Shown: positions 35,193 through 61,689 of the stretch, one piece after another
How positions within the stretch are numbered: the first letter of the stretch is position 1
Layout of the letters: every line of letters begins with the position of its first letter
Assembly: GCF_018977255.1 (NCBI RefSeq)
Contig: NW_024704742.1
Coordinates: 21,516,001-21,580,000 of the forward strand
Direction: 5' to 3'
Length of the DNA: 64,000 nt
Origin: Callorhinchus milii
Lineage: Eukaryota
Translations under genes and position numbers: made by a program
The notes under the pieces: model-generated
What the model was told of the DNA's origin: nothing
Seen by the model: the letters and a program-made list of their open reading frames with translations, nothing else
The model's database searches: none

Positions 35193-35480
35193 TAATAATA
35201 ATCCTTGCAGTTGATATAGCGCTTTTCACGTCTCAAAGTGCTTCACAGAATATACTGTAAAGCGAATTGACTGTATATTTGTGGGCAAAACGCGACAGCT
35301 AATTGCACACAGCAGTGTCCCACAAACAGTCATGGATTGAAGTGACCAATTTATTATTGTTTTTTTCCTTGAGGGATTATTATTAGGCGTATGGAGTAAG
35401 GAAACTTGCCCAAGGAAACTGCTGGGAATCAAACCCAGGTCTCTGGCTTGAGAGGCGAGTGCTCTAACCACTGAGCTACA
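35193..35480 (-). mobile_element. tRNA-Ala-derived SINE
   Basis: Family match from tail to ctctaaccactgagctaca. Confidence 0.85.
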
Positions 35481-35679
35481 TATTTTAAATAACCTCGAGT
35501 TTTCAAATATTTTATATCATCTGTTTAAAATTTTGGCACAAATGTTGCAATGCCCAGTTGCAGGTTTAGGTTATACAAAGACTCAGCAAATATTCTTGAA
35601 TAAAATTAAATGGCTCTGTATATGCTCCAAAAACACCTTTGTTTATTACACACAACAAAGTTAAATATACAGCAGTTTG

Positions 35680-36008
35680 GTATCAACCTAGGTCAGTTGG
35701 TAACACTCTGGTCTCTGAGACAGAAGGTTGTGATTCAACCTTACAGTCTCGGTTGACTCTCCAGCGCTGTGTTAAGGGAGCGCTGAATTGTTGGGGATGC
35801 TGTCCTTTAGATGAGACATTTATACCAATGTCCCACTCTGCCCATTCCGGTGGACATTAAAGATCCAATGTATATTGCTGTGCAGAAATTGGCTGCTGTG
35901 TTTGACTACAAAACCCATAGTCATATTCTTTGTAGCAGATTCTGTAAAGTGCTTTATGACATCCTCCCAACATGAAGAGTGCGATATCAAATATAAGGAT
36001 TATTATTT
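35680..36008 (+). mobile_element. Older DeuSINE (SacSINE1-like)
   Basis: cagttggtaacactctggtctctgagacagaaggttgtg head and gaaattggctgc core. Confidence 0.6.
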
Positions 36009-39450: not shown

Positions 39451-42130
39451 GGGTCAAAATTGCATTATTCCTAATCACATTTCATTCCTTATTTAAGAAA
39501 CATTGTTAAATATGTTTCAAAAGACTTTCACCCTTCCAAATAATGACAATACCTAAACTCCAATGAAAAGTTTTGGCTTCCCCTTAGTGGAGATCATTTT
39601 CAAGTATCCTTTCCAAACTTATTTAAGGAATACTGACCCAACTCAATCCGAATTATTGCAGTGAATATGTCCAGACAAACTGATTCCCACACTTGCAAAC
39701 AGCTTGATGAAATTCAAAGATTTCCATGTTCTTGAGAGACAAGTATAGCCTCCATGGTCTTGCTCCCCCCTACCTCTGCGACCTCCTAATGCCCTACCAA
39801 CCTGGCCGCTCCTTCCATCTGCGGATGGAGTTCTAGAGGGTGGAGGCAAAGTGGCAGAAAGCCTGTCCGCCAATGTTGGGCAGAGCGAGGCGGGGGACGT
39901 GAAGCAGGCCGGAGCCGGCTGAGCAGAGGGAGCGGGCAGGTTGGTAGGGGGTTAGGAGGTCGCAGGGGTAAGGGGGAACAAGGCCATGGAGGCTATACTT
40001 CTCTCTCAAGAATAAGTGTATTTATGCAGCTCAAAGCAGGGTCCCAGCTTAACTCAACTGGCATCATGTGAAATAACAATTAAATCCTATCTCCTGGGTT
40101 CATACAAAGCATTCCTAGCCGATTATCTCCAAGTGGTGATCAAGGATGGCTGGCAAATGATTTTGAAAACAGGTTTTGGACCAAACCATTGTGAAGATGG
40201 TGTGTCCAGCCCCAAAACAACTCCATAATTGAAATTCCATTGTTTCTTAACAGATTCAGTCAGATAATTGTACAATATTCTGAAACTTCACATTTTCAAC
40301 CATGTATAACGGAAAGCTCATGTAAATTAACTGGTGATTATTGTTGTAAAATGAGTTTAACGCTATCCCACAGTCCCTTTGCCTCATTCCCTCCCTTGCC
40401 TCCTTTAAGGCCCATCTTCAAACCCTCCTCTTCGACTGTGCCATCGGTCACTCTCCTGCCCCTATCCTCCCTGCTCTCCACCCCTCCTGATCCCAACTCC
40501 CTGCTCAGGATCCAATCCCCAACTATCCAGCACCTCAGGACGTCCTGCCAACCTGAAAGGCGCAATACAAATGTAATTTGTTGTTAAATTTCTGGTTAGA
40601 AAGATTGTCCATTTTAAGATGATTGATATACATTGAAGATCAATGCTCCACAGGGCACATGGTTTCCTTGTTGGTGAGACAATTATATACATCACAGCCT
40701 ACAGTGATCCTCCCTCTGGTGAGAGGTGCTTGCTCTTTAAACAGCCTTCCCGTGACTATAATTGTTACAGTAATGGCTCCTGTCCAATAAGGGGAGGAAA
40801 AAAACAAACTTCTGCCCAATGTCCTATATCCTTTTGAGGCAAGACTTTATCGCTGACTTTCTCACATAGAGAGAGAGTGAGTGAAAGACAGTGATAGAGG
40901 CTCGCCTGATAATGGGATTCTGCATTGATAGCCCCTAGAAACAGTCCATTTCTGTGTCACTCTGATTCTATTGACAAACTTAACAGAAACACAGCCTCTT
41001 TTGATGCTCAGAAAAGCACTACACTCGAAAACTGTTTGGATTCCATCATAAAAGCCTAATAGCCTGTCTAGTCTCTGAATTGCTTTTCTAATTGTCTCTG
41101 ACATCTGACGTGTCTAAAGTCATGGGTCCAGCATTATAGGAATCCACACACAGCCTTGGAAGCTGCTCAATAGGTCTTGCCATCTTCCTCACCCCACCGA
41201 AACAACTATAAAAGAATGACCGCAACAACTCGTAACATTGTTGAGTTCTTACTTATATACTGTGGTTCAATTTGCTGGTCAGCACAAGCTGGCGAAATGT
41301 ACCATTTACCGTATATTATGGTAGCAGCACCATTGGCTGTAGACACTCGATAGCCCTCAAGCAGAAAGCCCAGCCCATGGTTGTTCTGCATCCAGACAGT
41401 TATAAAATTAAGTCATTCATACAGCAGTGCCATTTATTGTTTCCAGCAAAGAATTTCAGAAGGAACAGTTTGCCAACACTCTTTTCATGTTGAATCTGTA
41501 TTTTCCATACTATTTCATTGACACCTTTGAGATCTTGCCAACTACCATTGGATTGTGCTTTGTACCATGCTTTCTTTCCCTTCATGTGAACTCCAGTTGT
41601 TAATTGCGAGGTAAAACTGTGGCATTTCTCTGCGGTCTTTCTTTTGTCTGTCAAATTGGGAAAGTATTAAGTGGGTTTTGGTTTCGTCTTTTGTTCTGCG
41701 TGCTTTTCAGTTTGTTTTTGTGTGAGTTTCATGTATCACACATGTTTTCTCCTTCCTCGTCGAAGTCCTGACATACTGTCTTCGGAATAGCATGAGATGT
41801 TTTCATCTGCCTTTGTCTGGATGTCTCTGCTTTGAAGTTTACACCACTCACTGGTGCCTCATATCCCGCATTGGAACATTAGGCTGAGCCGCAAAATATT
41901 AATGACAGTCTCCGCTGAGGGTGCTCCAAGTTGGTCATTTTCATAGAGTTTGGCATGAACTCACTAGAGGGATCGTTTGATGGTTACAGTCTTTGTTACA
42001 TATGTACAGTGCCTCCTTTTTTCAATTTTTCCTTTGCCGACATATTAAACAAGCGCTTTTCTCACAAGTGACGCTCAATACTGAGCAAACGATTCCTCAC
42101 AGTGAAGATACTTCACTCGTTGCAATCTTG

Positions 42131-42507
42131 TGGAGTTCTGTAGCTCAGTGGTTAGAGCACTCACCTCGCAAGCGAGAGACCGGGGCTTGATTCCGGGGCA
42201 GGATGAAACGTTGGGCAAGTTTCCTTACACCACACGCCTCTGTTTACCCAGCAGTAAGTAGGAACCCGGTTGTAAGTCCATAGGTGGATTGCTTTTCTGG
42301 GGATATTAATTCCTTCAAAAAAATAATAATAATAAATTGGTCACCCAATCCACCACTGCTTGTAGGACACGGCCATGCGTAATTGGCTGCCACATTTCGC
42401 CCACAAAATATACTGTCAATTCTCTTTCCAGTATATTCTGTGAAGCGCTTTGAGACATCTCGAAGATGGGATAAGGTGCTATATCATATGCAAGGATTAT
42501 TATTATT
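42131..42507 (+). mobile_element. tRNA-derived SINE, long variant, inserted in the Crypton fossil
   Basis: Full head tggagttctgtagctcagtggttagagc through to the (att)n tail. Confidence 0.9.
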
Positions 42508-42514
42508 GTATATT

Positions 42515-43116
42515 AGCCTGGCTCAGTAGGTAGCACTCGTGCCTCTGAGTCAAAAGGTTATGGAGTTAAGCTCCACATCAGTATTTTGAATTTACAATCC
42601 AACCTGACTCTCCAATGCAGTGCTGGGGATGTGCTGCATTGTCAGAGTGCCATTTTTCAGATGAGTCGTTACATCAAAATGCCGTCTGGCCATTCGGGTG
42701 AACAATAAAAGTCCGAATGGCACTCTTTATAAAGAGAAACAAATTTCTCCAGGTTTCCTGGCCATCAATTCTCCAGATAAAATTGATCTTTCACTTCACT
42801 CCTCTTTGTAGGACATTCCTGGTTGCAAATTGGCTGTCGCGTTGACCTACAAAATATATAGTCACTATACTTTACAATGATTCCTGTGAATAATAATAAT
42901 AATGATTATTATTATCATAATAATAATAATAATAATGATTATCCTTGCATTTGGTTTAGAGCTTTTCAAATTGAGAGGACGTCCCAAAGTCTTTCCCAGG
43001 ATATACTGTGAAATGAAGTGACTGTGTATTCGTGTAACTTCGTATTTTTGAAGTGCTTTGAGACGTCCTCCCAAAGTGAAACATGCTATATCAAATACAA
43101 AGATTACTATTATTAT
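42515..43116 (+). mobile_element. Older DeuSINE with a nested opposite-strand tail fragment
   Basis: Head agcctggctcagtaggtagcactc and core aaattggctgtcgcg. An inverted tail lies at ~42890-43030 and a plus-strand tail ends at ~43115. Confidence 0.65.
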
Positions 43117-43759
43117 AATCTTTCAGTCATACCACTAACATGAATTGATGGAATTTCTTGGTTAGGATGTGTGGGAGGTATTTACTCAATTGGTTATGTT
43201 AACTCCTGTGGCGCCTTGTAGATATCTGTTGCGGAGTCGTGCGTCATATCTTGTTTTCTTTTGCGTGTGTTCTTATTCTAATGCTTTGAAGATGTTTTCT
43301 GTGCCTCCTCCACTTATTTTGTCAAATGTTGAGTGATGTTCTTTTATGTCTGCGGTGCTGATTTGTTCCAGCCCTCAGGGGCCTATTGATTGTCATCTTA
43401 TGGTTTGTAATTTTCTTCTGTGTTTCTCTTTTATTTTCAATGTCTTTTATCGGGGTCTCCAACTCTCAGTTGTCATTGGTGCTCTTGTGTGACCATTTCT
43501 TGCACCTTCTGAAATTGCACTCAAAGCAGTTTCCACATTTGTGGGCTATTGGTTTTGTGTTTCTGAATATAAGTTTGAACTCTCCAGACTTCAGGCTTGT
43601 CTCAAAGTCTGTTAGTAGGCTTACCATGAAAATTACGATGAAAAAGACATTTTGGCATAATCTCTTCTGTTAGCATTTTCTGCTAAGATTATTTTGGCAA
43701 GGTGTGTTTTATATTTACACTATAATGTTATGTTTATAAATTGGGCTAGTGTACCAATC

Positions 43760-44045
43760 GGTCTGCCTCGGTTGGCAGGAATCCAACATCCAAGTCAGAA
43801 GGTTGTGAGTTCAAGCCCCACATGAGGACTCTGAGCTCACAATGTAGATTAAAACTCCAGTACAGTGCTGGAGGAGCGCTGCACTGTTGGAGGTGCCGTC
43901 TTTTGGATGAAACATTACACTGAGGTCCCATCTACCTATTCAGATGGACAGTAAAATGGTACTATTCAAAACGAGAAAGTGAGTTTCTTCCCGTGTCCTA
44001 GCCAACAATTTCCCCAAGTAAAATAAATGGTCATTCACTTTTCAT
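43760..44045 (+). mobile_element. Older DeuSINE (SacSINE1-like)
   Basis: gtcagaaggttgtgagttcaagcccc...gcgctgcactgttggaggtgccgtcttttggatga. Confidence 0.75.
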
Positions 44046-47000
44046 CTGTTCATTTTATGGAATAAGGGATGTCATTGACAGCATGGAGAATAATAACAAT
44101 AATCTTGCACTTGATGCGACGCCTTATTAGTTCAGAAAAGAGCAGCAAGGTTCTGTAAATTGGGGTTCTACGTTGTGAAGAGAAACTCCAGAGCCAAACT
44201 TACTATCACTGCAGAAAAGATTATATATAATAATAATCTTTACATTTAGTATAACCCTTTCACAACAGGAGAATGTCCCAGAGTGCTTCACAGAATATAC
44301 TGTGATGTGGTGTGACTGTATGTTTTGGGGTAAATGTGGCATCTAAGTTGTGTACAGTAACATCCCATGAACAGCCATGAAGTGAATGATCATTTTTATC
44401 CTAGTCTTTAACATGATGAGAGGTACAGCTACAGCTATTTGATTCAGACAGTGACAGCAGAACTCATGGACACAGGATTAAATTAACTATTCCTCACACA
44501 AGACCAGAGTCAAAGATGTTTCATCCAAAGCAGAGTTGTGGATATGTAGAACACATGCCCAGTAGAAGTAGAGTAGTGTAGTACAGTAATAATGGCACAG
44601 TAAAAACACATATTGTGTATAATGTATTTTAAGATCTCCAAGGTGCTTCCAGGCATGAAGGGCACTATATAAATGCAAATTGTTGTTGTTGTACCCTAAT
44701 AACAATGTTAATGTGCTTTCCAAAATTCTAAAAGTCTGGCAAAATAGAATAGACTGACACTTCAATGCTGAGAGAATGCTGCATTGTCAGTGATACCATC
44801 CTTTGCGTGAGATGTTAAGCTTACATCTCATCTGCCTGTTAGTGTTCAAAGGGGTGTTGGTGAGCCCCCCTAAAGATCCCTTGACACTATTTCCAAAGAG
44901 AAGTTTCTCCCAGTGTCCTGGCCAACAATCCATCAGATAAAGTTGACCATTCACTTCATGATTGTTTCTGGGGCTTTTGGCTGTGCATTAATTGGTTGCA
45001 AGTTTTGCCTAGATAAACACAATAATAACACATTACTGTGAATGCTGTGAAGTGCTTTGACACAACCTCCTGATGTGAAAGGTACTATATCAAATACCAG
45101 AATTATGATGATGCAATACAAATTGACATTTAAATAGCTTTTTTAATGTCAGAAGGACATCCCAAGGTCCTGATTATTATGACAGAGGGGTGAAAAGGTG
45201 CTCTTTGGAGGAAAGGAGAAGGCAGTCCTACTGGAACCCGATTGCCAGATAGGTTCTGCACCTCACAACACAACCTAAATCACTAGCAACAGACTCCCAT
45301 GTACATCACATTTGATTCTGATCTGAGAATCTAATCTCGAACCCAAGGTCTAGCTTTTCTGAGAAGTGCTTTTTTGACTCCAGTGTTTCCATACTAATAC
45401 TGTATGCAACTCTCCAAGCAAGGAAGTCTGTATACCCCTAACTCTGCTTTCTGCTTCCTGGCAAAGTGCCACAGTGCAAGTCACGTTATGCCCTGAATAA
45501 AGGGGCGAAACATTTGATGGTTCTGTTTTCTACAGAAATGATATGGATACTGAGGGAAACTCTGAGTTGGGCCAATTTGCTGATGACAGCAAAATAAAGG
45601 GAGCAATGGAGACAAATGATGAAGAGAAGAATTTGCAAAATGATTCAGATCAGTTATGCAACTCGGCAGACCTATGTCAAATGAATTGTAACACCAATAA
45701 ATGTTAATGAATACAAATAAATACAAAACATGTGAGACATAGTATGCACTAACTGGAAACAAATTAAAGATTAAAAAGCCAATATATAGACATATAGCCA
45801 ACAGATTAAAAACTAATGTAATACCATCCAGGCAAAAGAGCAGAATATACTACTGAAGAAATGCTAAGGTTTTACAACGTATTGATTTTAACTAAAATAT
45901 AGAATACTAGTTATTGACATTGTTAATAAAACGGAAATAATTACATTTCAAAAGGTCACAAAATAGCAATGAGACTGATCCTAAGTATAACAACATGAGC
46001 TTTATAATATAATAATAGTGCTAATATTTATAATTCTTGGATTTGATATCATGTCATCGAGACATCTCAAAATGCTTCACGGGATTCATTGTAAAGAGGA
46101 GTGACTATATATTTGGTGGCCTTAAACATACGGAAGAGGAACTCAAGCTTTACAATCAGGAAACAAGGTAGTTAAGAGGTGACCTCATTAAGGGGTCAGG
46201 ATTGAGCGCAGTTGTAAAAGAGTTTGGGACTGAGGATGGCATGTGAGGACAAGCGACGACAACAACAACAACAGAATTACATTTGTATAGCACCTTTGAC
46301 ATTGGGAGGACATCCCAAGGCGCTGGCGACAGAGAAGCAAAGAAAGGATAAAAGACTGTGGAAGGAGACACTTCATGATAAAGTGCAAGGAGCATAAACT
46401 TGGCAATGTATTTAGTTGCAAGAGACAATATAAATAATTATCCTGTAGTGTAATGCTTTGAAATCTTAATGTTTAGTTGCAAAAACTGTTATGCAAAGTG
46501 AGTGCTACAAATTGTGAAGCCGAAAATGTTTGATTACATGCCAGTAAGAATAAACTAACTAACTGTATCATATACCAGGGGGAGGTTAGTGGAGTCTGCA
46601 GGACTCTTAACAGTAAACAGAAGTGATCTAGGATGAAAGTTATGGTGTCTGTGAGGTTTAGTTATTGCAATAGCTAACATTAAGCACTTAGCACAGCATG
46701 CTAAAAACAACTATTGTAATTGTTTTGCAAGAGTGTCGGAATCAAGCCAGCCCTCTGTGGCGATCTCGGTAGTCCGGTTCCCGAGCTCGGCGGGTCCACA
46801 GTATTTCAGGTCACTGCTGGTGACAGCACAGCCGGTCTGGGTCATTAGCAGGACCTGGAAGGCAGACCAGTCACTGGGGGCTGGGAGTCACCCCACTCAG
46901 CTCCTGTTAACCCTGCAAACCAAAGCCCTAATGGGTAGAGTGGTCCTAGCTGGACAAGCAATGGGAAAGCTTGCCAGGCAGTGATAACAAAGGCATTTTA

Positions 47001-48412: not shown

Positions 48413-49904
48413 CATAACGACCAACAACAATCTTCTGACTCAGAGACCAGAATGCAACCAACTGAGCCAGGCTGACACACTGTCAATTTGTTTCAAATTA
48501 TAACAAAATAAAATCAATTGGATCAATGTTTACATCAGGATGAGATTGTTCTGTAAAATTAAACAGACATTAGTAATGTGCACTCCTGTGGCATATTACA
48601 GCCACTTTCTTCAAGTTCAAACACTTTGAAACATACCCACACTGTACAAGGCAGTGTAATACGACCTGCTAATGGTTAGTAATCAACCAAGCAAGGAATT
48701 TGCTTTCTACATCTCTTCGAAAAGTCTCCGTGCTTGTCAGTAGAAGCAGCTTTCCCACACACCGGTATAAATGGGACACTGTTGGCGTGTGTTGATGAGC
48801 ACACGGATAAATTACATTGAAGTGATGCATAACTGAGATCACAGCACACACTTGTGGGCAGTGATCACTCATTTGCACTTCAGTGAAATAGACTGACGGA
48901 AACACCAACAGATATGCTGCCTTTAAATATCATTTAGAATTGCTCGTGCAATAACAATTTTTAACCCTTAAAATGCTGGCAGGTCTACAGGGATTCCTGA
49001 TTGTGGAATGTACAAATAATATTTGTACAGCACCTTTCACATCAGGAGGACATCCCAAGGTACTGAAACAACCATTCTGCATGTTTTCGACTCAAGCACT
49101 GAGCCTCTGCAAAAAGCACTGATGTTACAGTAATAAAGCTATTCAAACACAATAGTAGTGTTATTGTGATATTAACTTAACTGAATAAATACATGAAAAA
49201 CTAAAAATAACATATTTTAAAAACAAAACCTCCACTTGCTGTCATCCCTTTATCCTTTCAATTTATAATGTGTGATAATCCTTGCATTTAATATAGACAT
49301 TATCAAACTGTCTCAAAGTGCAGGGTTTACCATAAAGTGCAGTGCCTGTATATTTGCCCTTTATTAAATTGGATTGTTTTCCCTTTTTATGTCCAATTTA
49401 ACAATGATTCAGGTGAAAATTAATTCACTATTTATTGAAGCCATTTCCTCCAAAGGGTTTACATGAAACCTGTGCTCCATATTTGAGAGAGTTTAGAAGC
49501 TGGTTGAAGTACTTTCACTTTAAATTCATTTTATATTTATTACATTAAAGGTTCATTTGATGTATCAGAGGTGAACCCCCAATGCAATTCTCATTAGTAA
49601 CATCCATGAGGCAGAGTCTGTAGCAATGATGTGTAATATGTTGTTGTTGTTGATCTTCCGGCTCACCAATAGTGTGATTTGTCCGATGATCAGCAGGATA
49701 CTCTGAGTGGTTTTATTTAGCAATAGAAGCAGTTTCCACCCATAGACTTAGTAAAAGAAAAATTGAAGTCAAGTTATTGCAAGACATTTCAGCATTGATT
49801 TTTTAGGACTAGGTTTTTTTTGCATCTCCAGTGCTTCCGACACAAGGCAAAAAAAAACAAAAATCTCTATGTTGGAGATACCAAGATTGAAGATGAATCC
49901 AGGT

Positions 49905-50955
49905 GTTTTCTCCGCCCGCTCTCACCCGGTTACCTGCGGGTTACCCCAAGGATCCAGCCTTGGCCCCTCCTCTTTCTGATCTACATGCTCCCTCTTGGGG
50001 ATGTCATCTGTAGACATGAGGTATATTTCCACATGTACGCAGACGACACCCAACTCTATTTTTCCACCTCTCTTTGCGACCCCCAGTCCCCTGATGTTCT
50101 GACAGCCTGCCTGTCAGACCTCAGGGGCTGGATGAGCGCAAATTTCCTTCAGCTGAACATTGACAAGACAGAAGCCATACTCTTTGGCTCTCGTCAACAT
50201 CTAAAATCTCATGGTTCTCACCTCCTCCACCTACCCGACCTCCCGCTAAAACTCTCCGAACCCGTACGCAACCTAGGCGTCAGGATCGACCCCCAATTAT
50301 CCTTTCTCCCCTAATCCGATCCCTCACCAGCACCGCCTTCTTCCACCTCCGACGCATCACCCGTCTCCGCCAATACCTCTCTCCAAACGCCGCTGAAACC
50401 TCTCGGCTGGACTATTCTAACGCCCTCCTCGCCAGCCTCCCCTCCACTATCATCCATAAAATCCAGATTATTCAAAACTCTGCCACCCGCATTCTCACTC
50501 GCACCAAACTCCGCTCCCAATCACCCCAGTCCTTGCCAGACTGCACTGGCTGCCTGTCCCAGAGAGGATTGACTTCAAGATCCTCACCCTTGTATTCAAA
50601 TCCCTCCACTCCTCTGCACCCCCTACCTCTCTGACCTCCTCTCTCCTCAAAACAGTGCCCGTTGCCTTTGTTCCTCCGGGTCTGGCCTCCTCCTTGTCCC
50701 CCGAGTCCTCCGCTCCACCCTCGGCAGCCGTGCCTTCAGCCGTTATGCCCCAAGGCTCTGGAACTCCCTTCCTCACTCCCTTTGCCTCGTTCCCTCTCTT
50801 CCTATTTTCAGGTCTCTGCTGAAGACCTTTCTTTTTGATCGAGCCTTTGGTCACCTTCCTCCCCCTCCCCCTGGTTCGGCCCAGGGATCCGTACTGTGAA
50901 GCGCTCTGAGACGCCGTCCAGCGTGGAGGGCGCTATATAAATCCAAGTTGTCATT
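49905..50955 (+). mobile_element. L2 LINE, 5'-truncated RT and 3' end
   Basis: PLLFLIYMLPLGDVI..H...[39 protein letters not shown] in ORF 49820..50314. It continues through LHWLP-type sequence to the tail gcgctatataaatccaagttg. Confidence 0.95.
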
Positions 50956-57985: not shown

Positions 57986-60918
57986 CTAACTCTGATTACC
58001 TGCCCTATCCCCATATCCCCTAATCCCTCTATTTTTCAAGAATCTATCAGTCTCAGCCTTGAAAATGTTCAAGGACTGAGCATCTACAGCCTTCTGGGGT
58101 AGTGAATTCCATAAGTTCACTACCCTCTGAGTGAAGAAATGTTTCCTCAACTCTGTTCTAAGAGGCTGACCCTTAATTTTAAGACTGTGACCCCTGGTTA
58201 TAGATTCTCCTACCAGGGGAAACAGTCCCTCAGTGTCTACTTTATCCAGCCCTTTAAGAATCTTATAAGTTTCAATAAGATCCCCCTAATTCTTCTGTAC
58301 TCTAGAGAATATAGCCCTAGTTTATTCAGCCTATCCTCATAGGTCAGTCCCCTCATCCCAGGAACTAACCGAGTGAATCTACGCTGCACCCCCTCGAGGG
58401 CAAGTATGTCCTTTTTTAAATAAGGAGACCAAAACTGCACACAATACTCCAGGTGCGGTCTCACCAAAGCCCTATACAGTTGCAGCAAGACTTCCCTACT
58501 TTTATATTCTAAACCTTTCGAAATGAACGCTAACATGCCGTTCGCCTTCTTAGTTGCTTGCTGCACCTGCAAACTAACTTTTTGGGACTGGTGTACAAGG
58601 ACACCCAAATCCCTTTGAATACTAACACTATCTAACTTCTCTCCTTCCAGAAAATAATCTGTTCTTTTATTCTTGCTACCTAGGTGAATAATTTCACACT
58701 TGCTAACATTGAATTCCATCTGCCACCTACTTGCCCACTCCCCTAGCCTATCTATATCTTGTTGCAATCTTTTTGCATCATCCTGAGAGCTCACTCTGCT
58801 ACCTAGTTTAGTATCATCCGCGAATTTAGACACATTACATTCAATGTCCTCGTCCAGATCATTGATGTAAATGGTAAATAGCTGAGGCCCAAGCACTGAT
58901 CCTTGTGGCACTCCACTAGTTACATCCTGCCAATTCGAGAATGATCCGTTTATCACTACTCTCTGCTTTCTACCCGATAGCCACTCTTCTATCCATGTTA
59001 ATATTTTCCCATTAATCCCGTGGGCCTTGATCTTGAGTAACAGCCTTTTGTGTGGCACCTTGTCAAATGCCTTCCTAAAATCCAAATATACCACATCTAC
59101 TGGTTCCCCCTTATCCAACCTGCTGGATACATCCTCAAAAAATTCTAAAAGGTTAGTCAAGCATGACTTCCCTTTTGTAAAGCCATGTTGACTCTGCCTA
59201 ATCTTTTTATGGTCTTCCAGGTATCCCATAACTACGTCTTTTATTAAGGACTCAAGAATTTTCCCTACAACTGACGTCAAACTAACTGGTCTATAGTTTT
59301 CCCTATTTTCTCTCCCACCCTTCTTAAATAGTGGAGTTACGTTTGCAATCTTCCAATCAATGGGAACTTTTCCAGTATCCACAGACTTTTGGAAGATTAT
59401 AGACATGCCATCCACTATCTCAGTAGCCACCTCCTTTAAAACTCTCGGATGCAGGCCATCCGGTCCAGGGGATTTATCGGTTTTAAGACCCGACAATTTA
59501 CCTAGAACCATCTCTTTACTAATGTTAATCTCCCTAAGTTGCTCGCTAACATTGTCTTCTTGGTCCTCTATTTTTGGTATGTTTCCAGTGTCTTCTACGG
59601 TGAAGACTGTAGAAAAATACTTGTTTAATGACTCTGCCATGTCTTTGTCCCCTATTATAATTCCTCCGGTCTCTGCCTGTAATGGACCCACATTCACCCT
59701 CGCTAGCCTTTTCCTCTTTATATATTTGTAAAAACTCTTGGAGTCTGTTTTTATGTTCTTTGCTAGTTTGCCCTCGTAATCTATTTTCTCCCTCTTGATC
59801 AATTTTTTGGTCCTCCTCTGTTGTTCCCTAAAGTTCTCCCAATCCTCGGGTTTACTACTCATCTTCGCTGTTTTATAGGCTTTTTCTTTTGATTTGATAC
59901 TTTCCCTAACTGCTCTAGTTAGCCATGGCTGCACCACCTTTCCCATGGCATTCTTATTCCTCAAAGGAATATGTGCTCGTTGGGAATTTTGCACTATCTC
60001 CTTGAATGTCTGCCATTGCTGGTCTACCGTCAAATCTTTAAGTTTAGTCTCCCAGTTTATTCTGGCTAAATCCTCTCTCATACCAGCAAAGTTGGCTCGA
60101 TTTAAATTGAAGACTTTTGCTTCAGACTTAACTACTTCCCTCTCTAACTTAACGCTAAATTCCATCATATTATGATCGCTTTGCCCTAGAGGAGCCTTAA
60201 GTTCCAGTTTGCTGATCAGCCCTGTTTCATTACACAAAACAAGGTCTAATATGGCTTGTTCCCTGGTCGGCTCCTCAGCATATTGATCTAGAAAATTATC
60301 TCTAATACATTCTATAAACTCCTCTTCTATGTTACCTTTCCCAATTTGGTTGTCCCAGTCTATGTGCAGGTTAAAATCACCCACAATTAGTGTCTTTCCT
60401 TTGCTACATGCTCCACTAATCTCTTGATTTATACCTTGAGCGATACTTTGACCACTGTTTGGGGGTCTATAAACTACTCCCACTATAGTTTTCTGCCCCT
60501 TGAAGTTACGTATCTCTACCCATACTGACTCTACATCTTGCTTTTCAGATTTAAAATCTTTCCTCTCTACTGTTTTTATCCCATCCTTTATTAGCAGGGC
60601 CACTCCCCCTCCTCGTTTACCACATCGCCTATCTTTCCTATATACCACGTAGCCGGGAATATTCAGTTCCCATCCCTGATCACCCTGTAACCATGTCTCG
60701 GTGATGGCTACTAGATCATACCGGTTTGTCTCTATTTGTGCAACTAATTCATCTATCTTGTTACGAATGCTTCGTGCATTCAGATATAGCGCCCTTAATT
60801 CTGACTTCCGGCTATTAACCCTATTCACCAGCACTCTATCACTGTACTTCCTTTCCCTGCTTGACACACTTTGCTCTTCTCCCTTGTTAATCTGCTCTCT
60901 TGCTTTTGTTGATCTCAA
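57986..60918 (-). CDS. CR1 ORF2: APE endonuclease plus reverse transcriptase, with one frameshift at 58282-58286
   Basis: Endonuclease motifs YLNARS, ITETW, YRPP, GDFN, SDH. RT motifs KSPGPDG, NYRPVSLTS, QHGF, LDFRKAFD, GVPQGSVLGP, FADD. The shifted frame continues DLIETYKILKG...WNSLP...NQS* to the stop at 57988-57986. Confidence 0.93.
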
Positions 60919-60967
60919 GTTTAACTGTGGTGGACTATACTTTACTATGTTTTTACCTCCCTCCCCC

Positions 60968-61402
60968 TTAATAGTTTAAAGCCCTTTCTACCTCCCTATT
61001 TATTCACGTAGCCAGGACATTTGTCCCAGCCCTATTTAGGTGGAGCCCATTCCTTTGGAAAAGCTCCCATCTTCCCCAATACTCGTGCCAGTGGCCCATG
61101 AATTGGAATTCCTGCTCTCCGCACCACTCTTTTAGCCAGGCATTCAGATCCATGATCTTCTTTTGCCTGTACCAATTAGCTCCTGGCTCAGGTAACAGTC
61201 CCGATATCATCACTTTGGAAGTTCTATTCCTTAGTTTAATTCCCAATTCCCGGAACTCGCTCCTTAACTCGTCCCTACTGGTCCTACCAATGTCATTGGT
61301 CCCTATATGTACCATTATGATTGGATCCTCTCCCTCATGCCTCAAATTTATCTCCAGCCCGGTGGTGACATCCTTCACCCTGGCCCCAGGAAGACAACAG
61401 AG
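60968..61402 (-). pseudogene. CR1 ORF1 C-terminal SGNH-esterase-like fragment
   Basis: CCLPGARVKDV...VHIGTNDIG...GLHLNRAG. An in-frame TGA at 61006-61004, probably a decayed CGA, precedes INREVERALN. Confidence 0.85.
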
Positions 61403-61689
61403 TCTTCTTCTCAGTTTTGTCTGAATACTCTTAAGGGCAGCAATGGGTTTCTGTGTGTGTCAAACCCCATCTGATCCAAAAGAATATATCTGTATATATC
61501 AAATGCAAGGATTATCATTATGAGTAGCCAATGCAAAGCCTTGTGATTGATTGATTGATGTGTGGCTCCTTGAGGACAGTAAGTCTCAGCTGGGGCTGAA
61601 TCGTCTCAGGTATCTTTAGTAATGTTCTGTCCTGGCCTAGAGGCAGGGGATAACTTCTGCATTAGACTGAAACCAGAGAACTCTCTCAC

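Follow-up and report, generated by a model that had tools for sequence, protein, structure and literature searches.

Does the minus strand between positions 41330 and 43700 of a 64,000-nucleotide stretch of the Callorhinchus milii genome (contig NW_024704742.1, positions 21,516,001 to 21,580,000; hereafter the window, from whose first letter positions are counted) hold the remains of a Crypton transposon, as an initial annotation had proposed, and did these remains arrive by transposition or through the decay of a host gene? Judged from the sequence, the homology of this relic to Crypton/DUF3504 proteins is firm, and the relic is probably a dead copy of an animal Crypton (CryptonA-type) tyrosine-recombinase gene that arose from transposition rather than a dead duplicate of a domesticated gene. 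As described by Kojima & Jurka (2011, Mob DNA 2:12, PMC3212892), a Crypton encodes one recombinase, which cuts and rejoins DNA via the catalytic residues R-H-R-Y, and moves without terminal repeats; the domain DUF3504 is presented there as derived from animal Crypton recombinases. Crypton activity was placed in the jawed-vertebrate ancestor by Kojima (2018, PMC5753468), and DUF3504-encoding CryptonA elements retaining the catalytic residues are described by Krysinska et al. (2026, PMC13465315).

Roughly 900 bases of relic coding sequence are left in two colinear minus-strand pieces, 43277 to 43118 and 42114 to 41475 (perhaps to 41391), which follow positions 3-281 (perhaps to 309) of a Crypton/DUF3504 tyrosine-recombinase profile, cry5. 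The pieces are separated by a block derived from short interspersed elements (SINEs). The parts are as follows.

43118 to 43277, minus strand: N-terminal part of the relic, cry5 positions 3-53, with 3 frameshifts and 3 stops, stopping at the SINE block.
42130 to 43116, no strand assigned: inserted SINE-derived repeat block splitting the relic, with a young SINE, older SINE pieces and an ATAATA-type simple repeat.
41475 to 42114, minus strand: central part of the relic, cry5 positions 58-281, with 8 frameshifts and 9 stops.
41544 to 41954, minus strand: single-frame core of the relic, 137 codons with 3 stops, seen by HMMER without frameshift handling.
41391 to 41474, minus strand: possible HxxR region and the glycine (Gly) of the GH motif, cry5 280-309, weakly supported.

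On the alignment path to cry5, 276 residue columns were aligned, of which 95 were identical to the consensus and 187 were positive-scoring. The same path crosses 12 stops, 11-14 frameshifts and the 987-base SINE block, and no intact recombinase reading frame is left on it. The central part runs from the EpssLrgi..RhL motif past the W(Y/F)..G motif. All eleven motif strings on which the Crypton proposal had been based were found in translation where they had been placed, in three minus-strand frames. Eight of them lie on the supported cry5 path (NKN/T..KTRYD, PIE*IPP, F.LVV*LKD, SSL*GI/..SIERHL, QLGAPS, CGI*GTSE..KL..RDI, PQFYLAINN, and WYKAQ/PM; asterisks are stops), LANCSF* and the LSG of LSGCR are reached by the lenient extension only (frameshift cost 8), and LEGY lies on no alignment path.

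The evidence for homology came from profiles built for the subgroup, none of which contains window sequence. The cry1 profile was made from an intact frame on contig C31 (L009) plus 150 sequences chosen to represent its 7473 database relatives, cry5 from an intact gene of the same genome on contig C13 (L005) and 41 relatives, and cry6 is a union profile. Six-frame translations of the window were searched with hmmsearch --max (filters off). The best window match of cry1 was the core, 41954 to 41544 on the minus strand, at profile positions 143-272 with 9.6 bits and an expectation value (E) of 0.003-0.005, the next match having E 3.8. The same core was matched at 17.1 bits (E 2.9e-5) by cry5 and at 19.0 bits (E 7.9e-6) by cry6, for which the runner-up in the window, at 1.7 bits, was the N-terminal piece of the relic itself. 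In the controls, the remaining window and 200 kb picked arbitrarily from this genome (264 kb in all), unrelated DNA did not exceed 1.3 bits with cry1 and 1.0 bits with cry5 or cry6.

Frameshift-aware alignment was performed with a script of our own, using profile scores in half-bits, gap costs of 11/1, a stop score of -4 and a frameshift cost of 8 or 12. Aligned to cry5, the minus strand of 41200-42130 scored 131.9 at cost 8, reaching 41391, and 95.5 at cost 12. None of the 516 genomic control tiles reached the relic (mean 33.1/30.5, standard deviation 4.6/3.9, maximum 49.6/45.3 at the two costs). The N-terminal part, 43277 to 43118, scored 51.4 and 42.5 against cry5 1-57 and was significant alone, none of the 1340 control tiles being as high (maximum 38.6). 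With cry1 the frameshift-aware score was weaker (50.9-65.2) and one control tile in the window exceeded the relic; 1600 Markov-simulated tiles had a maximum of 48.0, so none reached even the cry1 score. The call of a Crypton/DUF3504 relic is thus borne out by a significant colinear match to Crypton/DUF3504 proteins, obtained with custom profiles and frameshift-aware alignment.

The interruption between the two pieces is repeat DNA. The block drew 17,255 first-look repeat candidates in the genome, 40 of which were scored; its young SINE (42130-42507) shares 84-87% identity with copies on many contigs, its older SINE pieces extend to about 43104, and repeat families D1-D7 are found within it. 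The cry5 alignment picks up across the block at 42114, only five profile positions on (53 to 58), and 42130-43116 is therefore read as a later insertion into a once continuous intronless frame. The excision of this segment, recommended in the initial annotation, was correct in the light of the genome-wide repeat matches, and the description of the relic as intronless holds over the covered part, where the SINE block is the sole interruption. The surroundings in the window are likewise repeat-rich, with SINE copies that have thousands of relatives. Another young SINE, at window positions 35250-35480, is 89-91% identical to copies on many contigs and had 5,629 first-look candidates.

Several results weigh against the reading of the relic as a dead Crypton copy, and those that concern its detection would suit a chance resemblance, that is, short motifs pieced together across three frames in DNA rich in AT and in repeats. 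The relic escapes Pfam and tblastn as well as pairwise alignment. Pfam DUF3504 had been put forward as a check, and it gave no match at E<=10 in the six frames of 41000-44200 or in the core alone; the relic fails the curated PF12012 gathering score (29.7 bits), and a genome-wide PF12012 search returned 25 matches, 0 of them in the window, so the relic is visible to custom subgroup profiles only. A tblastn search (word size 2, E<=1000), in which seven DUF3504/Crypton proteins of the same genome served as queries, touched the region only at E>1, and its 1400 pieces across the window formed no colinear chain in the relic region. In frameshift-aware pairwise alignment with seven own-genome proteins the region was not outstanding, at best 2-4 of 102 control tiles being as high, and the alignments were mostly out of register, only that of L005 being in register (18/61). 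The E-values deserve a small correction for multiple trials, given the four profiles and the two or three settings of the frameshift cost that were used. The catalytic third of the domain was at chance when stops were scored flat: in the free test 1003 and 848 of 2228 controls were as high (p 0.37-0.45), in the anchored test 246 and 953 of 2488, and cry1 gave the same outcome. The catalytic tyrosine (Tyr) could not be aligned on any path to cry5. Motif-driven scores also have heavy tails, as seen from a spurious-looking cry1 match of similar score at 35548-35710.

Chance is nevertheless extremely improbable as an explanation. The HMMER matches with cry5 and cry6 (E 8e-6 to 3e-5) stand 16-18 bits above the 264 kb of same-genome controls, two independent parts of the relic each exceed all of their control tiles (0/516 and 0/1340 as high), 0 of 1600 simulated tiles reach the cry1 score, and the core is independently linked to a fossil on contig C15, described below. 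With the better profile, cry5, the signal at 35548-35710 vanishes while the relic score doubles. This candidate, on the plus strand, reads 'CPVA ... WY....GNTL' with Crypton-like motif spacing and scored 59-67 with cry1; it was ruled out with -0.5 bits in HMMER, no upstream or downstream extension and no place among the top control tiles of the better profile, and its GNTL appears to be read from the head of a transfer RNA-type SINE. A control tile in locus L023 with a cry1 score of 50 was likewise dismissed as noise, having -1.5 bits in HMMER and running partly through a stretch that resembles the simple repeat with which SINEs in the window begin.

The stops themselves carry information on the reading register. 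Six TGA stops face cry5 columns, and four of these fall at columns where arginine (Arg) is the best residue, compared to 6 of 53 in control alignments; Arg-best columns make up 20 of 328 profile columns. The four stops, and the tetrapeptide that had been proposed to hold the catalytic Tyr, are located as follows.

43127 to 43129, minus strand: TGA at the Arg of V-R-x-x-x-G, profile column 50, Arg best; this residue (R82) is nearly invariant in the family.
42097 to 42099, minus strand: TGA at a further Arg column, profile column 63, Arg best.
41859 to 41861, minus strand: TGA at the first catalytic Arg column, profile column 154, Arg best, directly before a conserved Gly.
41456 to 41458, minus strand: TGA at the Arg column of HxxR, profile column 287, Arg best; the histidine (His) column holds cysteine (Cys).
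41350 to 41361, minus strand: LEGY, the proposed catalytic Tyr, unsupported and beyond the end of every alignment path.

The earlier observation of in-frame TGA codons where Arg is expected was therefore confirmed, with both catalytic Arg columns among the four. The assignment of the first catalytic Arg is supported by the TGA at 41859-41861 before the conserved Gly, Arg and Gly (R187, G188) being nearly invariant among 33 aligned Crypton-like proteins. When TGA was scored as a former Arg in target and controls alike, only 9 and 43 of 2488 controls were as high as the catalytic third. The HxxR register of the relic is likely, since the region beats the controls under this scoring and TGA stops prefer Arg columns; of the HxxR motif proposed earlier, the Arg (TGA at 41456-41458) stands only with TGA counted as former Arg, and the His column holds Cys. 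The Gly of the GH motif is possible, lying at the end of the lenient path only, and the GH assignment hinges on this one residue. LEGY as the catalytic Tyr was not upheld, as no alignment path contains it. LANCSF*, LSGCR, and LEGY do lie on the diagonal expected from an anchor at 41537, and the spacing of LEGY to the Gly is plausible (13 codons compared to about 10). Stops on Arg columns are an internal signature of CpG decay that can back the reading register of very old pseudogenes.

Relatives of the relic were found elsewhere in the genome (991 Mb searched). The best non-self match of the relic-core translation was C15:8597683-8597853, with E 0.19 and 39% identity over 57 residues. This locus is part of a second fossil, L040 (C15:8597587-8597895, plus strand), which covers profile positions 38-226, carries stops and frameshifts, and is better preserved than the relic: it scored 60 bits with cry5 compared to 17 for the relic, reached an alignment score of 233 and was matched by Pfam DUF3504 at E 5e-4, its 20.6 bits with PF12012 being also below the gathering score. 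The relic core aligned to L040 with a score of 90, the control maximum being 58, and identity between the two is 39% across 59 aligned columns and 33% across 110. The next genome match of the core, L041 on contig C20, scored 72 and fails the profile (29.8); since it has no profile match, its score is taken as the genome-wide chance level.

Single-protein genome searches listed further decayed copies of the subgroup on contigs C1, C2, C3, C4, C8, and C15, and never the relic in the window. One of these, the third fossil L042 (C4:28177700-28178356, plus strand), has an alignment score of 200-217 and about 10 stops; reading 'TNHSA' and 'SGH' in the columns of HxxR and GH, it retains the HxxR His and the GH motif. 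The intact L005 (C13:1600450-1601490, plus strand) is a DUF3504 gene with an open frame of 528 codons that has neither the catalytic Arg nor the His. A bamboo-shark protein shares 79% identity with L005; among longer proteins the closest are the KRAB-DUF3504 proteins from ten anuran species (38-41%), and KIAA1958 reaches only 33%. L005 is possibly a Crypton domestication outside the 2011 list as given in the abstract of PMC3212892. The intact L009 (C31:3488246-3489481, plus strand) is a Crypton recombinase frame of 412-489 codons in which R, HxxR, GH, and Y are all present. Annotations around L009 suggest that the fusion of ATF7IP with a Crypton is older than the amniote ancestor and at least of jawed-vertebrate age; the part of PMC3212892 that deals with ATF7IP dates the insertion to the amniote ancestor and leaves the chimaera copy unanalysed. 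ESM Atlas entries for L001 and L006 named the general DUF3504/integrase family only, without gene names. Two intact relatives encoded in the genome share 91% and 79% identity with shark proteins, in keeping with the chondrichthyan origin of the DNA that had been supposed from the sequence.

The placement of the relic was analyzed in two trees. FastTree was run with 187 of 191-192 sequences, the 4-5 that covered <60% of columns being dropped, and IQ-TREE with 51 sequences, namely, a 36-member clade and 15 outgroups. The trees hold the single-exon own-genome members L001, L005, L006, L009, L010, and L011; the multi-exon ZMYM-type genes were left out and compared pairwise only, their first exons aligning in register with the relic at control-level scores (31-37). 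The relic and L040 are sisters, with a Shimodaira-Hasegawa-like (SH-like) support of 0.92 in FastTree and an ultrafast bootstrap (UFBoot) of 98 in IQ-TREE. This fossil pair falls among animal Crypton-like proteins and is sister, with moderate support (0.82; UFBoot 84, 29 members together), to a 27-member clade in which L005 and its shark orthologue stand with a frog KRAB-DUF3504 protein, the C4 fossil, and invertebrate proteins carrying PF12012 and PF00589. L042, the C4 fossil, groups with L005 and the shark orthologue. The pair stands outside the clade of L005, shark orthologue, frog protein and C4 fossil (0.98; UFBoot 97) as well as outside the next clade of 12 (0.92; UFBoot 100), and it is not nested with any of the six own-genome members. 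Nesting within a host-gene clade, which had been named as the outcome that would turn the relic into a processed pseudogene, was thus not seen among the own-genome DUF3504 genes in the tree.

The contrary results that remain concern origin, and they favor an ancient dead duplicate or retrocopy of a domesticated DUF3504 host gene, for example of the L005 lineage on C13. The profile centered on L005 detects the relic best (17.1 bits compared to 9.6 bits with the profile centered on the ATF7IP-linked Crypton), and the best single match of its sister fossil L040 is the intact L005 (BLOSUM sum 184, 29% identity; the best Crypton-like protein reached 148). L040 also holds alanine at the first catalytic Arg column, that Arg being lost. 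At the DNA level both flanks (41330-42130 and 43116-43760) occur once in the genome, no second DNA-level copy that would mark the relic as a transposon was found there, and no ends or target sites mark it as one; terminal repeats are absent from animal Cryptons (PMC3212892). Both fossils have long branches (1.0-1.3 substitutions per site), so the basal place of the pair may be false. The lack of introns decides nothing, since the host genes of the group are intronless over the region too. Against such a duplicate stand the position of the fossil pair outside both the L005 clade (0.98 and 97) and the clade of 12 (0.92 and 100), the scatter of several decayed copies of the subgroup over contigs, and the occurrence of TGA at each of the two catalytic Arg columns, both of which lack Arg in L005; these stops fit descent from a recombinase that still held the Arg pair. 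A dead host-gene duplicate is accordingly considered rather unlikely. The non-domesticated status claimed for the copy is favored by the tree position and by TGA at Arg columns, though not proven.

A further alternative is a unitary pseudogene, left behind when a formerly functional host gene died out in this lineage, or a fragment since co-opted as noncoding regulatory DNA. The relic is single copy at the DNA level, DUF3504 genes were repeatedly domesticated according to PMC3212892, and lineage-restricted intact members exist, namely, L005 and the anuran KRAB-DUF3504 proteins. In opposition to this, the path is broken by 12 stops, 11-14 frameshifts and the SINE insertion of 987 bases, and retrotransposon domains were the only protein-family matches among the window's 82 open frames that span 85 codons or more. 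This origin is regarded as very unlikely.

For the favored reading, a Crypton relic, the following course may be envisaged. A Crypton copy would have had an intact catalytic set on arrival, CGA-to-TGA decay would have left the stops at both catalytic Arg columns, SINE insertions would later have split the recombinase frame, and the relic would by now be without function. It is tentatively suggested that the relic and L040 could be what remains of a distinct and very ancient CryptonA lineage in cartilaginous fishes, basal to the lineage of L005 and the anuran KRAB-DUF3504 proteins, with a recombinase that worked at the time of insertion. If this were true, TGA at both catalytic Arg columns would testify directly, at the genomic level, to autonomous activity of Cryptons in early jawed vertebrates, over and above what the domesticated genes show.

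Compared to known systems, the relic resembles CryptonA as described in PMC3212892 in being a single intronless recombinase frame with a DUF3504-type core, colinear and without recognisable terminal repeats, and in its tree clade, which includes invertebrate PF12012 and PF00589 proteins. Unlike an active CryptonA it is dead and single copy at the DNA level, and its catalytic His and Tyr are not recoverable. The domesticated genes KCTD1, KIAA1958, ZMYM2/3/4, and QRICH1 and the ATF7IP-linked Crypton share the domain and several motifs with the relic (L..QLG..P..L.N, G.R/x.G....L, FY, and W[YF]....G). In contrast to the relic, which is broken and not nested among the six single-exon own-genome members, domesticated DUF3504 genes are intact and conserved, most of them without catalytic residues. 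L040 is broken by stops and frameshifts like the relic and differs from it in its better preservation.

Chordate Crypton fossils, those of the chimaera included, were published in 2011, Table 3 of PMC3212892 holding three chimaera records. The relic in the window is like these in being a remnant of Crypton-like coding sequence, altered by frameshifts and substitutions, in the genome of a cartilaginous fish, and unlike them it is too decayed for single-sequence searches. It is a real but ordinary fossil, since cartilaginous fishes were already known to have such remains, and alone it adds little because chimaera fossils of the same kind were listed in 2011 already. Cryptons are rare in vertebrates and known mostly via the genes they left behind, and undomesticated remnants help to date the activity of the transposons. 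The relic was out of reach of Pfam, BLAST and open-frame calling; subgroup profiles combined with frameshift-aware alignment recover such relics, and a census of the Callorhinchus milii genome by this route would likely add more.

Other features of the window included retrotransposon sequences. An open frame of 912 codons at 58240-60975 on the minus strand belongs to a long interspersed element (LINE) and encodes an endonuclease and a reverse transcriptase (RVT_1, E 9e-34). Upstream of it, at 61007-61459 on the minus strand, lies a frame with a GDSL-lipase/esterase-type domain (E 7e-10), and the two together may form a young retrotransposon that is nearly intact. A piece of reverse transcriptase (RVT_1, E 2.6e-7) was located at 49799-50311 on the plus strand in a GC-richer stretch, and an inverted repeat at 39708-39815 and 39926-40033 has arms of 108 bases that are 82% complementary and 110 bases apart.

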